From IMG/VR virus record IMGVR_UViG_2778261588_000004, positions 1 to 35,326 of that record: a DNA stretch of 35,326 nucleotides, one strand, 5' to 3'. Below, piece by piece: positions 13,076-19,895 of the stretch. The translations under genes and the position numbers were made by a program. Numbering within the stretch: the stretch's first letter is position 1; each line of letters opens with the position of its first letter. This DNA is from a virus (lineage: Duplodnaviria; Heunggongvirae; Uroviricota; Caudoviricetes). The notes below the pieces were generated by a model. It made no database searches, had not been told where the DNA came from, and worked only from the letters and a program-made list of their open reading frames with translations.

Positions 13076-13752
13076 ATTCCTTCATTTTTTCAGCGGACTC
13101 AACGCATTTATTAGCCCCCTTCGCAACCAGCTCTTTTAGATAAGCCAATTGTCTGCCTGTCAATTCAGGGAATTTTCTTTGCATCGAAAGCGGAATACTG
13201 TCCAAAACAGATGCCAGTTCTCCGGATAACCGGGACAGGGCAAAAATAGAGAAAGCTGTATCAATCACCTTATGCTCTGCAACCTGGTTTTTTAACCGCT
13301 GAGAAATAGCCTGTTCTTCCGTCAGGTTAACCCTGGCCTTAAGTAGCCTTTCCTCAAGATCATTTTCACCACCTGAAGATTTCTGGTTTTGTTGACGTCG
13401 CTCGCGATCTATCTCCAGTACAGTTTTAACGTCATAGAAAACCTCTCTCCCCCGGCGCTCAACAGGAGGAACACCCCATTTATCAAATGCCTGTACTGAG
13501 ATACCGATGGAGGAGGCCATGTCGCTTTTATTCAATAAAAAGGCCACAGTCCCTCCATAAACCACCGGCAAAAAAGCAATACAACAACCACGTTTTTTGT
13601 AAAACCCTCTGATTTTACATGCTTTTTCGTATAAGAAAGATCATCAGGTTGTTGTGTTTATTTTTCTTTCTTATTACTTATCAAGTAGATATATCAAACG
13701 ATAAAACAACAACCATCACCTCAAAAAAACTCGTAAATAGCGAAAACCCGCG

Positions 13753-13764
13753 AGGTCTCCGCCC
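13753..13764 (-). other. cos: cosN cohesive-end sequence (GGGCGGAGACCT on the minus strand)
   Basis: Minus-sense GGGCGGAGACCTCGCGGGTTTTCGCTATTTACGAG matches the lambda left end GGGCGGCGACCTCGCGGGTTTTCGCTATTTATG with one mismatch in the 12-nt overhang; it lies ~190 nt upstream of the Nu1-like gene, and the flank toward 13960 resembles the lambda right end. Confidence 0.75.
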
Positions 13765-13963
13765 CGTAACCTGTCGGATCGCCGGAAAGGACCCGCAAAA
13801 TGATAATAATTATCATCTACATGTCACAACGTGCATCTACGCCATCAAACCACGTCAAATAATCAATTATGACGCAGGTATCGTATTAATTGATCCGCAT
13901 CAACTTAACGTAAAAACAACTTCAGACAATACAAATCAGCGACACTGAATACGGGGCAACCTC

Positions 13964-16832: not shown

Positions 16833-16937
16833 GGATATTTATCAGGATTTATCGGTTTCTGAACCCTGGATATGTTTATCTGTCCCGGCCTGTTGAATCA
16901 GGCAAGGAATAGTTAAATACAATAGAGAGGATTGTTT

Positions 16938-17210
16938 ATGGACAATAGCACCATTTCTCTACAGGAGTTGCTCGACTGCATTTCCAAGCTTCGGGATGAT
17001 GTAAATGCCCTTACTGTCGCATTTTCATATCTGGCATTCTCAATTCCCAAGGAACAAATGCAACCAACACTGGCATCGCTCCAGCTTGAATCAATCAATT
17101 CCAAATGGTCCCAGCAACAACAAAATTCTTTCAAGTGGCTAGCGGTATTACTGGAGGAAAAATATGCTGGTGAAATTACCATTTCGGCGGAGTCTTCAGT
17201 GAACCAGTAA
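16938..17210 (+). CDS. Hypothetical small protein (90 aa), convergent with the neighbouring minus-strand ORF
   Basis: ATG at 16938 with AGAGAGG 7 nt upstream; AT-rich; overlaps the 3' end of the 17176..17520 ORF by 35 nt; no family recognised. A minus-strand ORF (16913..17245) covers the same DNA, so strand is unresolved. Confidence 0.35.
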   Translation: MDNSTISLQELLDCISKLRDDVNALTVAFSYLAFSIPKEQMQPTLASLQLESINSKWSQQQQNSFKWLAVLLEEKYAGEITISAESSVNQ

Positions 17211-17520
17211 TTCTTCCCGGCAGTTTTCCTTTGTAGGTTATCCACACACTCTGCGCCTCTAAAATTATGGGGCGCTTTTCCGGCGACTGCTCATCCCCTC
17301 CACATAACCCGGCAGCAACATCCAGGAAGACCTGTCTGATGCTCCTTCTGGCTGCTGCCTCATAAAACTCCAGCGCGGCACCTTCAACACGGTCCAGCGA
17401 GATGTCCAGGTCAAAAATTTCACCGTCAAAGCGTTCTTTGTCCTGTAATGCTAAAGTTACCGTAACTTTATTCTCAAAATTGCGGATCCCTTTCACAATC
17501 ATTTCATAGTTTTGGACCAT
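17176..17520 (-). CDS. Hypothetical protein (114 aa) between holin and endolysin
   Basis: Starts 5 nt after the holin stop with GAGGAG upstream; same position as ydfR between essQ and rrrQ in the Qin prophage, but homology to YdfR/DUF1327 is not verified. Confidence 0.5.
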   Translation of the reverse strand: MVQNYEMIVKGIRNFENKVTVTLALQDKERFDGEIFDLDISLDRVEGAALEFYEAAARRSIRQVFLDVAAGLCGGDEQSPEKRPIILEAQSVWITYKGKLPGRITGSLKTPPKW

Positions 17521-17524
17521 TATA

Positions 17525-17740
17525 TTACTCTCCTCTCGCAGCCTTTCTTCTGTCTTCTCTGATTTTGAAGTACAGATTCGTCAGATAAGTCAGAAAGCCC
17601 AGAACCAGACTTCCCAGTACACCAATCGCAGCCCACTGAGACGGACTAACCTGATCAAGCCATTGTAAAAACCAGTAGCCAGCACTGCCTGCGGAGGTGC
17701 CGTAGGCAATGCCTGTTGATATTTTTTCCATCTGATACAT
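17525..17740 (-). CDS. S: Class II holin (phage 21 S21 / EssD-type pinholin), dual-start
   Basis: Two Met codons three codons apart ([30 protein letters not shown]...), two TM segments, charged C-terminus [13 protein letters not shown]; 71 aa from the first Met; the track ORF extends upstream. Confidence 0.85.
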
Positions 17741-17849
17741 ATCCCGCCCCAACAGACCTGTGCTACCGGAAAGAAAAAAGGCCATCAGCAAAACTCTGAT
17801 GGCCTGAATCACCTTTACCAGTCATGTATGAAAAAATACGCACAATCAA

Positions 17850-17978
17850 TTGACAATAATTATCATTTTCATTAAAAATACCGCGTAACATTCTTATTTC
17901 ATGAAGAACCATACCCGCCAGCAACCTGAGTAGCAAAAGCTGTTCATCCCCCATATTTTTGCTGGCGGGTTCTTTTTT
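17850..17978 (+). ncRNA. Candidate small RNA unit: sigma70-like promoter plus intrinsic terminator, antisense to the late leader
   Basis: Perfect -35 TTGACA (17850..17855), 17-18 nt spacer, A/T-rich -10 (TAAAAA/AAAAAT ~17873..17879); hairpin ACCCGCCAGCAA (17913..17924) / TTGCTGGCGGGT (17959..17970) then TCTTTTTT (17971..17978); no ORF with an RBS inside. Confidence 0.3.
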
Positions 17979-18203
17979 CTACTGCCCTCCTCCCCAGGAA
18001 AAGCATTTCATTCTTTTCTCATTAATCGTTACTGGAGAGAAGGCGGGAAAAAGCCAGCTCTTTGGCCCTAAATAACAGCATGGCTTCAGTCCATACAGAA
18101 TCTGATTTTCCAGCTCACATAATAACCAGATGATGCAGTTGCAAAATCTGGCAACATCGGATTATTATGCGCCTGTGAAAATTTCTTCACGTTTTATTCC
18201 TTG

Positions 18204-18235
18204 CCGCCCGTGCCTCCCAGCGCGGGCTTTTTTAT
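18204..18235 (+). terminator. Weak plus-strand hairpin plus T-run (half of a back-to-back terminator pair)
   Basis: GCCCG (18206..18210) / CGGGC (18223..18227) with 12-nt loop, then TTTTTT (18228..18233). Confidence 0.3.
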
Positions 18236-18262
18236 CCAAAAAATACCCCTCCGGAGAGGGGT
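18236..18262 (-). terminator. Intrinsic terminator in the late-operon leader (tR'-like candidate)
   Basis: Minus sense ACCCCTC-TCCG-GAGGGGT followed by ATTTTTTGG; ~480 nt upstream of the holin start. Confidence 0.5.
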
Positions 18263-18552
18263 ATCATACAAGGGGATGACCATAATGCATGGTGCCGGGT
18301 GCCTCCCGGTGAGTCCGGCATCAGCATACGAACCCGCGATTATCCCAGAACTGACTGCTGATTCGCCCCGCCGCTTAGGGGGATTCACCATGCGTTTTTT
18401 TATTTACAAACTCTTCGCCAGACAAACAACCATTAACTGGCTGAATTGTGAGGTATTTCAATTTTTAGAAAACTGACCAACCTCCGCTTATACGCCGGGC
18501 ATGGAGCGGATACAAAAAAGCCCCGCAAAAGCAGATCAGAAGGATTCGTTGT

Positions 18553-18592
18553 AAAAAAAAAGCTGTCAGATTATCGCGCTAATCTGACAGCT
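18553..18592 (-). terminator. Strong intrinsic terminator downstream of the methyltransferase gene
   Basis: Perfect 13-bp stem AGCTGTCAGATTA / TAATCTGACAGCT (18561..18573 / 18580..18592), 6-nt loop, followed in minus sense by a run of 8-9 U. Confidence 0.65.
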
Positions 18593-18833
18593 ACAGCAGG
18601 TATCCAAAAACATGGGTGGAAACAATAAGTGAGTTAAGAAGACACGGTGTCGGATTTTTACCGATGAGCCGTTGGCGTGGTCAACCGTGACTCGCTTGTA
18701 TCAACGATGAATTAATGAAGCCAATCCTTTGCAGGCTATGTACAACCCACCACATCAGCCCTGCTGCATTGCAGGATACACTGTATCTGTAATCATTATA
18801 CGGCACAGACATCCCACCAATAATTGAATTAAT

Positions 18834-19895
18834 TCACAAAATTGTATTTGCTGATAACATACTGATTTCCTGGATGGTCTGATTAAACCGCTCTGTCTCA
18901 AGCTCAACACCTAACGCCCGACGCCCCAGCGCCATTGCTGCTTTTATTGTGGAACCGGATCCCATAAAGAAATCAGCAACCAGATCGCCGGGTCGACTAC
19001 TGGCATTGATTATTTGCCTGAGCATATCCGCCGGTTTCTCACACGGATGTTTACCCGGGTAGAACTGAACGGGTTTATGCATCCAGACATCGGTATAAGG
19101 CACGGAGACTGATACGGAGAAATAGCGCCGGAGAGATTTAAACTCATCCAGCAATTCAGAATATTTGCGATTCAGTGAATCATAAGATGCCACCAACTGG
19201 TGGTGTGGTTGTTCCAGTTGTTGTTCCTGAAACTTCTCTGCCGCTATACGGGAAAACAGTGCCTGTAACTTCCGGTAGTCAGCCTCATTCGGCAACTGCC
19301 ACTGACTGGCACCAAACCAGTGGGAAACCATATTTTTCTTACCTGTGGCTTCGGCAATTTGTTTTGCCGTTATACCCAGTTCGGCACGAGCATCCCTGAA
19401 ATACGATATCAGCGGTGCCATTATGTGCTGTTTGAGTTCCCTTTCTTTTGCCACATAGCCGTCACTTTTGCCGCGATATGGCCCCCGGTAATGTTCAGCA
19501 AACAGAACGCGCTCTGTGGCAGGAAAATATGCGCGCAGACTTTCTTTATTACACCCATTCCAACGTCCGGACGGCTTCGCCCAGATGATATGGTTAAGCA
19601 CGTTGAAACGTTCACGCATCATGATCTCAATATCAGATGCCAGGCGATGCCCACAGAACAGGTAAAGGCTTCCGGCAGGTTTCAACACCCGCCAGAACTG
19701 GGCCAGACAGTGGTCCAGCCACTTAAGGTAATCTTCGTCCCCTTTCCACTGATTGTCCCAACCGTTGGGTTTCACCTTGAAGTAAGGCGGATCGGTAACA
19801 ATCAGGTCAATGGAATCATCAGGCAGGGACTGAATAAAATGCAGGCAATCAGCGTTGATTAAATCAATACTGTTTATTTTTACAGTGCTTTTCAT
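18834..19895 (-). CDS. DNA methyltransferase, beta-class (probably N6-adenine)
   Basis: 353 aa; motif IV DPPY near the N-terminus (LIVTDPPYF) and AdoMet motif I FFMGSGST near the C-terminus, the beta-class order; no adjacent restriction gene recognised. Confidence 0.85.
   Translation of the reverse strand: MKSTVKINSIDLINADCLHFIQSLPDDSIDLIVTDPPYFKVKPNGWDNQWKGDEDYLKWLDHCLAQFWRVLKPAGSLYLFCGHRLASDIEIMMRERFNVLNHIIWAKPSGRWNGCNKESLRAYFPATERVLFAEHYRGPYRGKSDGYVAKERELKQHIMAPLISYFRDARAELGITAKQIAEATGKKNMVSHWFGASQWQLPNEADYRKLQALFSRIAAEKFQEQQLEQPHHQLVASYDSLNRKYSELLDEFKSLRRYFSVSVSVPYTDVWMHKPVQFYPGKHPCEKPADMLRQIINASSRPGDLVADFFMGSGSTIKAAMALGRRALGVELETERFNQTIQEISMLSANTIL

Follow-up and report, generated by a model that had tools for sequence, protein, structure and literature searches.

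A candidate Fur-repressed small RNA gene read against the late operon of a DLP12-like prophage

Does the gap in front of a prophage holin gene hold a small RNA (sRNA) gene that reads against the late operon, and if so, is lysis what its RNA would control? The question is raised by IMG/VR record IMGVR_UViG_2778261588_000004, a DLP12-like lambdoid prophage of Escherichia coli, of which we analysed the stretch of 35,326 nt that we call the window. Its late genes lie on the minus strand. A preliminary description, made from the sequence, had seen a plus-strand promoter and terminator at 17850-17978, and this candidate sits in a 490-bp non-coding gap between the STnc100 RNA gene and the class II holin gene. 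The 501 nt that we searched around it (17740-18240) are 100% identical to the chromosome of FDAARGOS_1058. From comparative sequence analysis we hold, with moderate confidence, that the candidate is an autonomous, unannotated and Fur-repressed "sRNA moron", a unit with its own sigma-70 promoter whose RNA would act mainly in trans.

Predicted promoter, RNA and terminator

The -35 and -10 elements, the hairpin and the U-run of the preliminary description were all found on the plus strand where it had placed them. The gap of ~35 nt that it gave between the -10 element and the hairpin is borne out by the sequence, and its ~95-nt unit corresponds to a predicted RNA of ~94 nt (about 17885-17978), antisense to the late operon. 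The parts of the unit are as follows.

17850-17855, plus strand: -35 hexamer TTGACA, seen by reading the sequence and by promoter scan; invariant in 10 variants
17852-17870, no strand: predicted Fur operator over the -35 and spacer; minus reading GAAAATGATAATTATTGTC, plus reading GACAATAATTATCATTTTC
17873-17879, plus strand: A/T-rich -10 region, read as TAAAAA at 17873-17878 (17-nt spacer) or AAAAAT at 17874-17879 (18-nt spacer)
17885-17978, plus strand: predicted small RNA of ~94 nt, its 5' end placed from the -10 and its 3' end from the U-run
17885-17912, plus strand: unstructured, lineage-variable 5' region, candidate target-pairing region
17913-17978, plus strand: conserved 3' domain with a 12-bp GC-rich stem, an inner hairpin, a C-rich bulge and the U-run
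17913-17924 and 17959-17970, plus strand: arms of the 12-bp outer stem, ACCCGCCAGCAA and TTGCTGGCGGGT
17927-17946 and 17947-17958, plus strand: 8-bp inner hairpin and 12-nt C-rich single-stranded bulge, within the 34-nt hairpin interior
17971-17979, plus strand: U-run TCTTTTTTC (TCTTTTTT over 17971-17978)

The -35 hexamer aligns with the -35 (TTGAAT) of Pstx1, the promoter of the Shiga toxin 1 genes, and with the TTGACA of three sRNA or sRNA-like units: PasA and PasC of enteropathogenic E. coli (EPEC) and a unit in Sp15 of enterohaemorrhagic E. coli (EHEC) Sakai. In the -10 region, the AAAAAT version with its 18-nt spacer scores 10/12 in the promoter scan. TAAAA is invariant, and the last T changes to G in the ColV plasmid and pathogenicity island (PAI) lineages. 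This T.A.AA pattern recurs with identical spacing in PasA and PasC (TCAGAA), PasA unit 2 (TGAAAA) and Sp15 (TTAAAA). Promoter-like hexamer pairs are not enriched in the 3-kb region (4 versus 5.0 ± 1.9 in shuffles), so the promoter match by itself proves nothing; it is the comparative data that lift both the promoter and the fold above chance.

The predicted RNA has a fold z-score of -5.2, and its structure lies in the 3' domain (-27.0 kcal/mol, z = -6.2). The hairpin folds at -31.2 kcal/mol (z = -6.2), with 0 of 200 shuffles as good. The 5' region reaches only -1.4 kcal/mol, which is no better than shuffles, and its variability parallels the variable 5' ends described in the literature for PasA and for the prophage sRNAs AgvB and AsxR. 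The 12-bp stem is followed by UCUUUUUU, and its GCCAGC/GCTGGC core is common to PasA and PasC. Judged as an intrinsic terminator, its stem and U-run are excellent and its 34-nt interior falls outside the loop of 3-8 nt allowed by a simple terminator scan, which missed the hairpin for that reason. The inner 8-bp hairpin may close the terminator loop. The sequence features suggest that the 3' domain is likely an intrinsic terminator and likely an Hfq site.

On the minus strand the hairpin folds just as well (-26.7 versus -27.0 kcal/mol; minus-strand z = -4.2), and there it lies within the leader of the lysis transcript. Both facts would suit an element of the late strand, RNA or DNA, such as a structure in the lysis mRNA's 5' leader that serves processing or stability, with the plus-strand promoter incidental. 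Since stability is equal on both strands, the strand call rests on the U-run and the promoter; G.U pairs were dropped as strand evidence once the minus-strand fold proved equally stable. An invariant U-run follows the hairpin on the plus strand only, and a covariance model built from the variants scores the candidate at 126.6 bits on the plus strand and 13.9 bits on the minus strand. The hairpin is also conserved where the late transcript does not exist, and a late-strand role leaves the conserved promoter and Fur box upstream of it unexplained. We consider a late-strand element very improbable.

The Fur box and the Shiga toxin 1 promoter

The most informative feature of the locus was overlooked in the preliminary description: the promoter spacer is a predicted Fur operator, identical at 17 of 17 positions to that of the iron-regulated Pstx1. 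The box matches the consensus GATAATGATAATCATTATC at 16 of 19 positions; in Markov-shuffled versions of the window the expected number of sites is 0.00 at 16 or more and 0.09 at 15 or more. By the same measure the ryhB promoter scores 16/19 and Pstx1 15/19. Other lineages of the unit score 15-17/19, and the box is retained via different substitutions in the four lineages.

The similarity to Pstx1 extends over 17850-17874 (TTGACAATAATTATCATTTTCATTA), of which 23 of 25 positions are identical to Pstx1 of Sakai Sp15 (TTGAATATAATTATCATTTTCATTA, ~125 nt upstream of stx1A), including three shared departures from the Fur consensus. Pstx1 is experimentally Fur-repressed. A Pstx1 reporter is derepressed by the iron chelator deferoxamine, by nitric oxide (NO) and in a fur mutant, and an AT-to-GG mutation of its Fur box abolishes control by iron, Fur and NO (PMC5552940). 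According to the mutagenic primer, the mutated AT sits directly after the -35, and its equivalent in the window is the AT at 17856-57.

Outside the operator the two promoters differ. The -35 is TTGAAT in Pstx1 and TTGACA here, the -10 is TACGTT there and TAAAAA here, and upstream or downstream of the cassette there is no similarity, which stops after the -10. Whereas Pstx1 reads with the late genes and drives the toxin operon, the cassette is inverted relative to the late genes in the window, so that the candidate reads against them and would drive a non-coding RNA. The cassette TTGANNATRATTATCATTTTCATTA occurs in IMG/VR in two contexts only, before stx1A in 40 contigs and before the candidate RNA in 16, and an A/G operator polymorphism is common to both.

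Three further observations concern Fur sites. A second Fur-box-like palindrome of 16/19, CAAAATGATAATAATTATCATCTAC, lies at 13796-13820, ~30 nt from a lambda-type cos (13740-13765) and ~140 nt upstream of a ylcI/ynfO-like gene; a similar GATGATAATCATTATC is present close to the right end of phage lambda. The published Fur chromatin immunoprecipitation sequencing was done in CFT073, and the element is absent from the CFT073 stretch that we examined (the iro region, 1,180,000-1,215,000). In that region c1255, a Fur-regulated gene of unknown function by iroB, was considered and rejected, being merely the gene divergent from iroB. A 34-nt stretch of CFT073 (L025, 4917-4950) is 85% identical to the candidate promoter and Fur-box region and lies between two hypothetical genes adjoining the Fur-regulated microcin H47 (mch) locus. 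Presumably it is another Fur operator of similar type.

Distribution, conservation and coding potential

The 151 nt around the candidate are present in 1427 of 5426 complete E. coli genomes (~26%), at 915 chromosomal and 642 plasmid places. In PLSDB, 574 plasmids carry the unit (531 from Escherichia, 21 from Klebsiella, 17 from Salmonella and 5 from Shigella), and 537 of them are conjugative. The match lists include isolates of sequence type (ST) 131, e.g. JJ1886, and over the listed matches the annotation is either absent or just a coding sequence (CDS) for a "hypothetical protein". The unit was found in prophages, islands and plasmids only: INPHARED phages gave no match in near or distant mode, and among GTDB representatives the promoter pattern had 0 matches, the hairpin pattern had 3 unrelated chance matches and the unit was absent outside E. 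coli. Compared with the nmpC-essD intergenic region of K-12 DLP12 and with IpeX, the holin coding sequence alone matches. A full-text literature search, with the hairpin sequence and for Fur-, prophage- or ColV-related sRNAs, found no description of the candidate RNA, subscription literature being outside its scope.

The full context of the window, from the holin start to 18240, is kept in only 135 genomes. IMG/VR prophage contigs added two further lineages in intact context. Most of the total is made up by a class of roughly 85-90% identity with ~1300 further records. All four sampled copies of this class lie on ColV-type plasmids or pap-linked islands, where they are flanked by insertion sequence (IS) elements and an Rz fragment and have no holin, lysozyme, Q or late promoter (pR') nearby. 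The copies on ColV-type plasmids stand beside the Rz fragment and iss, upstream of iroBCDEN, and the chromosomal island copies have papI and IS elements as neighbours, in ATCC 25922 as well as in the three other chromosomes examined. The window shares one block with these copies.

17770-18137, no strand: mobile block of 368 bp with the late-strand terminator, the sRNA gene and 160 bp of unassigned role; ~85% identity to the ColV and pathogenicity island copies

The edges of the block are sharp and are shared by ColV plasmids and pap-linked islands (L002, L003, L029 and L030), with three different sequences past each edge. IS3, ISL3 and an IS-type integrase pseudogene were seen past the edges. 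Inside the block, 18061-18137 is also fairly conserved (17 of 77 positions variable), and we found nothing to explain this.

Conservation was assessed on 10 distinct variants, which represent only about four independent lineages. Variable positions were distributed as follows.

-35 hexamer: 0 of 6
right stem arm: 0 of 12
U-run: 0 of 9
left stem arm: 2 of 12
hairpin interior: 5 of 34
5' third of the predicted RNA: 11 of 27
81 nt directly past the U-run: 49 of 81, with indels

Whichever two lineages are compared, 2-6 of 67-69 positions (3-9%) are changed in the 3' domain (17913-17979), versus 14-29% substitutions in the flanks, which also carry indels (Fisher p = 4e-4 to 1e-2). Promoter divergence within the same block is 7-13%. 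The pattern holds for the pair of holin-less remnant lineages, whose 3' domains differ at 2 of 67 positions versus 43 of 235 in the flanks (p = 8e-4). A cis-antisense target cannot explain conservation in such remnants.

Could the unit be a mosaic relic without function? Moron shuffling would then have put a Pstx1-type cassette next to an old terminator, any transcript would be a by-product, and the block would hitch-hike with iss, iro or pap. The unit is indeed mosaic: its similarity to Pstx1 ends right after the -10 and its similarity to the Sp15 unit is confined to the promoter. The lack of covariation and one A.C mismatch in the stem of the ColV lineage would fit such a relic as well, as would the remnant copies, all of which lie in IS-rich DNA adjoining selected virulence genes. 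It is the gradient inside the block, from diverged flanks to promoter to 3' domain, that speaks against it, together with the invariance of the -35, the right arm and the U-run in all variants and a Fur box held at 15-17/19 via different substitutions. We find a relic improbable.

We also considered whether the conserved product might be a protein. RefSeq, annotated with the Prokaryotic Genome Annotation Pipeline (PGAP), places a 63-aa hypothetical protein (WP_157911611.1) on the minus strand at 17954->17763. The preliminary description had found no open reading frame (ORF) with a ribosome-binding site inside the unit. This holds, and the PGAP CDS, the sole one annotated there, is not conserved: in three of the four lineages (ColV, PAI and L015) the frame has ATT for ATG and internal stops or frameshifts, so the conservation is not protein-coding. 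A type I toxin-antitoxin system would have a conserved small ORF on the opposite strand, and here the start is lost and stops are gained in the same three of four lineages. Within the predicted RNA we found no conserved ORF on either strand.

A 10-codon ORF at 17901-17933 on the plus strand (MKNHTRQQPE) is open in all four lineages with amino-acid changes (M[KR][NKS][HFY]TRQQ[PS][EK]), with no stop or frameshift. It has no Shine-Dalgarno sequence (upstream AACATTCTTATTTC), its survival is accounted for by the lack of indels in the conserved domain, and it is probably incidental. Despite the PGAP annotation and this open frame, a protein or type I toxin-antitoxin product is extremely improbable, and the 63-aa CDS is probably a mis-annotation over the sRNA gene.

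Relatives among prophage sRNAs and mode of action

We next compared the candidate with known sRNAs. At the moron site downstream of pR', Tree et al. (2014) reported sRNAs bound by Hfq, some of them in antisense orientation, e.g. AsxR and AgvB (PMC4104026). In EPEC, Pearl Mizrahi et al. validated PasA (85 nt) and PasC (79 nt) by Northern blot and found their stability to be Hfq-dependent (PMC8550237, Table S6). PasA and PasC have many trans partners in RIL-seq, which ligates and sequences interacting RNAs (PMC8550237).

The candidate resembles PasA and PasC (EPEC E2348/69; EcOnc51/EcOnc52 in EHEC Sakai) in several ways. All occupy the same slot, from the moron region downstream of pR' to the class II holin, and are antisense to the late genes. 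PasA runs on the minus strand (743499->743415) between a SASA (nanS-p-type) esterase gene and a class II holin gene (743713), both on the plus strand, and reads against both; the candidate runs on the plus strand (17885->17978) with the holin on the minus strand (start 17740), so slot and orientation are PasA-like. The sizes are close (79-85 nt versus about 94 nt here), the layout is the same (TTGACA-N17-T.A.AA and, after 45-50 nt, a terminator with a GCCAGC stem and a U-run), and just before the holin comes a terminator of the late strand. The differences are that a Fur box is missing from the promoters of PasA and PasC and that the terminator interior of the candidate spans 34 nt with an inner hairpin. 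In addition, the survey of Pas distribution by Zhu et al. (2026 preprint) yielded 12 plasmid hits in total, compared with 574 PLSDB plasmids for the candidate.

The nearest relative that we found is an antisense sRNA-like unit of Sakai Sp15 (L032 4042-4165, plus strand; NC_002695.2, about 2,922,041-2,922,164), which lies between an esterase gene and ECs_2971. It consists of TTGACA-N17-TTAAAA followed by a ACCGCCAGCG/CGCTGGCGGT terminator with T8. It is unannotated in the RefSeq record, and a search of the supplement found no EcOnc entry with its coordinates. Its promoter is identical to 17850-17882 at 28 of 33 positions (z = 5.7, 0 of 1000 shuffles), slot and orientation are the same, and the covariance model of the candidate matches it weakly (19.6 bits, E about 0.05). 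It differs in that the Fur operator is absent (11/19, hand count), the 3' part is PasC-like (z = 7.7) and the terminator is short and simple. By sequence, the Sp15 unit bridges the candidate and PasA/PasC as their sole, indirect link. The candidate is best described as a new mosaic variant of the holin-adjacent antisense sRNA class, and not as a member of the Pas sequence family.

Two other systems offer parallels. In its proposed logic the candidate is like RyhB, being a ~90-nt RNA behind a 16/19 Fur box with a GCCAGC-stem terminator and a long U-tail; unlike RyhB, to which it has no sequence or Rfam (RF00057) relation, it is carried on mobile elements. We noted that the RyhB terminator UUAGCCAGCCGGGUGCUGGCUUUUUUUUU (L074) and the PasC-type terminators UUAGCCAGCG...CGCUGGCUUUUUUU (PasA unit 2 and PasC; L005/L006) have a common UUAGCCAGC/GCUGGCU core, which may be a coincidence or a common terminator module. 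AsxR and AgvB, likewise prophage sRNAs, are encoded downstream of pR', at the moron site, and run counter to late transcription; their 3' regions are conserved and their 5' ends variable, and AsxR feeds into haem and iron metabolism (PMC4104026). They differ in length (51-60 nt), belong to another sequence family and lie directly 3' of a moron CDS as half of a convergent pair. Neither Rfam AgvB (RF02702) nor AsxR (RF02703) matches at the gathering threshold in the window or at E <= 10 over 17400-18900.

The counterpart of the AsxR/AgvB pair in the window is more likely STnc100 together with a second plus-strand promoter-terminator unit at 18139-18235. This second unit has TTGCAA-N18-TATTAT at 18139-18168 and a terminator at 18206-18227 with a T-run, and predicts a ~60-nt RNA convergent with STnc100. 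Such an arrangement agrees with the "convergent sRNA pair" that Tree et al. described, although the unit is matched by neither Rfam model, AgvB or AsxR. In sequence the unit has 78% identity to an intergenic region of Sakai Sp15 that lies downstream of stx1B (L032 6252-6424), and it starts right where the 368-bp mobile block ends (18137).

From these comparisons we infer transcription, Fur control at this site, termination, Hfq binding and action in trans, in the following form. A lysogen or plasmid host would express the RNA from its own sigma-70 promoter. When iron is replete, Fe2+-Fur would bind the operator over the -35 and spacer (17852-17870) and keep the promoter off; iron starvation, or nitrosative stress that inactivates Fur, would let it fire. 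The ~94-nt RNA would start at about 17885 and terminate at the 12-bp GC-rich hairpin and U-run (17913-17978). Its terminator and U-tail would bind Hfq, in the layout usual for Hfq-dependent regulators, and its unstructured variable 5' third, the conserved C-rich bulge or both would pair with targets. The main mode may be action in trans, on RNAs of host, plasmid or phage, as for its positional counterparts PasA/PasC and AsxR/AgvB.

Several points weigh against a Fur-repressed, trans-acting RNA. The conserved -10, TAAAAA, has no highly conserved final T, and AAAAAT at 18-nt spacing exists in the window lineage only. Both RNA ends are predictions, the 34-nt terminator interior that the scan missed is unusually large, and the hairpin does not distinguish the strands by its stability. 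The second 16/19 Fur match beside cos means that a consensus match alone is no proof of Fur control. There are no compensatory double changes among the four lineages, because divergence is too low across about four independent lineages, and the low divergence of the 3' domain could stem from recent recombination instead of purifying selection. Homology of the RNA body to PasA and PasC is not significant (Smith-Waterman z = 0.66 for PasA, 2.44 for PasC and 1.54 for unit 2), and the PasA and PasC loci give no match to the candidate's covariance model at E <= 10. A target search by duplex folding and RyhB pairing returned long spurious duplexes and terminator-stem self-complementarity, which were uninterpretable and gave no target.

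The preliminary description had proposed that the RNA modulates lysis genes or leaky late transcription, and had placed it between the late terminator and the holin gene. The unit does lie just upstream of the holin, but on the late strand it is upstream, not downstream, of the terminator-like hairpin. The late genes run in the order antiterminator Q homologue, two small ORFs, DNA methyltransferase, STnc100 RNA, class II holin, YdfR, lysozyme and Rz/Rz1, and the features nearest to the candidate are these.

19895-18834, minus strand: DNA methyltransferase, upstream of STnc100 on the late strand
18422-18234, minus strand: STnc100 RNA (Rfam match, 115 bits, E = 1e-24)
17779-17805, minus strand: late-strand terminator-like hairpin and U-run (10 bp, 6 GC, T-run), 39 nt upstream of the holin start codon, at the left edge of the 368-bp block
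17740 (start), minus strand: class II holin

An equivalent of the late-strand hairpin precedes the holin at the PasA locus, and its stem is partly degraded in holin-less remnants. In the lysogen it could serve to insulate the lysis genes; alternatively, a late-strand sRNA could have its 3' end here. A minus-strand Rfam match resembling the 3' end of SgrS (24.8 bits, below the gathering score) was rejected as just this terminator.

If the RNA were a cis-antisense lysis regulator, it would pair with the late transcript, or its transcription would collide with it, and holin expression or leaky late transcription would be tuned in an iron-dependent manner through the Fur box. The late mRNA contains, 145-240 nt upstream of the holin start, the perfect complement of the RNA, a holin-adjacent position is common to PasA, PasC and the Sp15 unit, and in an intact prophage transcription of the unit would necessarily converge with Q-modified late transcription. 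The antisense position and the PasA/PasC slot of the earlier proposal therefore stand. As a main function, lysis control is at odds with the distribution: the 135 genomes with the full holin context are the only ones to retain it, and in the 4/4 sampled copies of the majority class, remnants that have lost holin, lysozyme, Q and pR', the promoter and 3' domain are still conserved. The paired region is also far from the holin ribosome-binding site, with the late-strand terminator-like hairpin in between, and PasA and PasC have their many RIL-seq partners in trans. We judge a cis-antisense lysis regulator unlikely. Action in trans is more likely, given that conservation persists in copies which have lost the late operon and the holin; in intact prophages the late mRNA may also be affected in cis, as a secondary role.

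The rest of the neighbourhood adds little to the RNA content of the window. STnc100 was the only real Rfam match from the whole-window and sensitive local scans, and the scan of the window at the gathering threshold and of 17400-18900 at E <= 10 gave no plus-strand match at the candidate site. STnc100 lies ~2.7 kb downstream of the Q gene, after the DNA methyltransferase moron, and has recently been linked to PasD. A tRNA scan turned up neither tRNA nor tmRNA genes. Between lysozyme and YdfR, within the minus-strand lysis cassette, a 92-aa plus-strand ORF at 16932-17210 is annotated as a hypothetical protein. Its overlap with YdfR is 35 bp, and strain RM13745 has an equivalent annotated CDS.

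We tentatively suggest that the unit is a previously unrecognised riboregulator that is mobile and repressed by Fur. It would join RyhB as a second sRNA of iron starvation, driven by the portable iron-sensing cassette of Stx1. It would be carried on lambdoid prophages, on pap-linked B2 islands, including those of ST131, and on conjugative ColV-type plasmids from extraintestinal pathogenic E. coli (ExPEC) and avian pathogenic E. coli (APEC), between iss and the Fur-regulated iro genes. For annotation, this would mean a PGAP error, with a probably spurious protein gene opposite an sRNA. The candidate would extend the holin-adjacent antisense sRNA class (PasA/PasC, EcOnc) beyond EPEC and EHEC and give it a first clear environmental input. 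It would also tie the iron regulation of Stx1 to a cassette shared with a prophage sRNA, which bears on the origin of Pstx1. ColV plasmids and ExPEC islands have been studied mainly for their iron-uptake genes, all of them Fur-controlled. An unannotated sRNA under Fur control in that DNA would offer a directly testable candidate for regulating virulence or fitness, whether in blood, in urine or in poultry infection, and, if the suggestion is true, iron limitation in the host would switch on an unlooked-for post-transcriptional programme borne by plasmids and phages.

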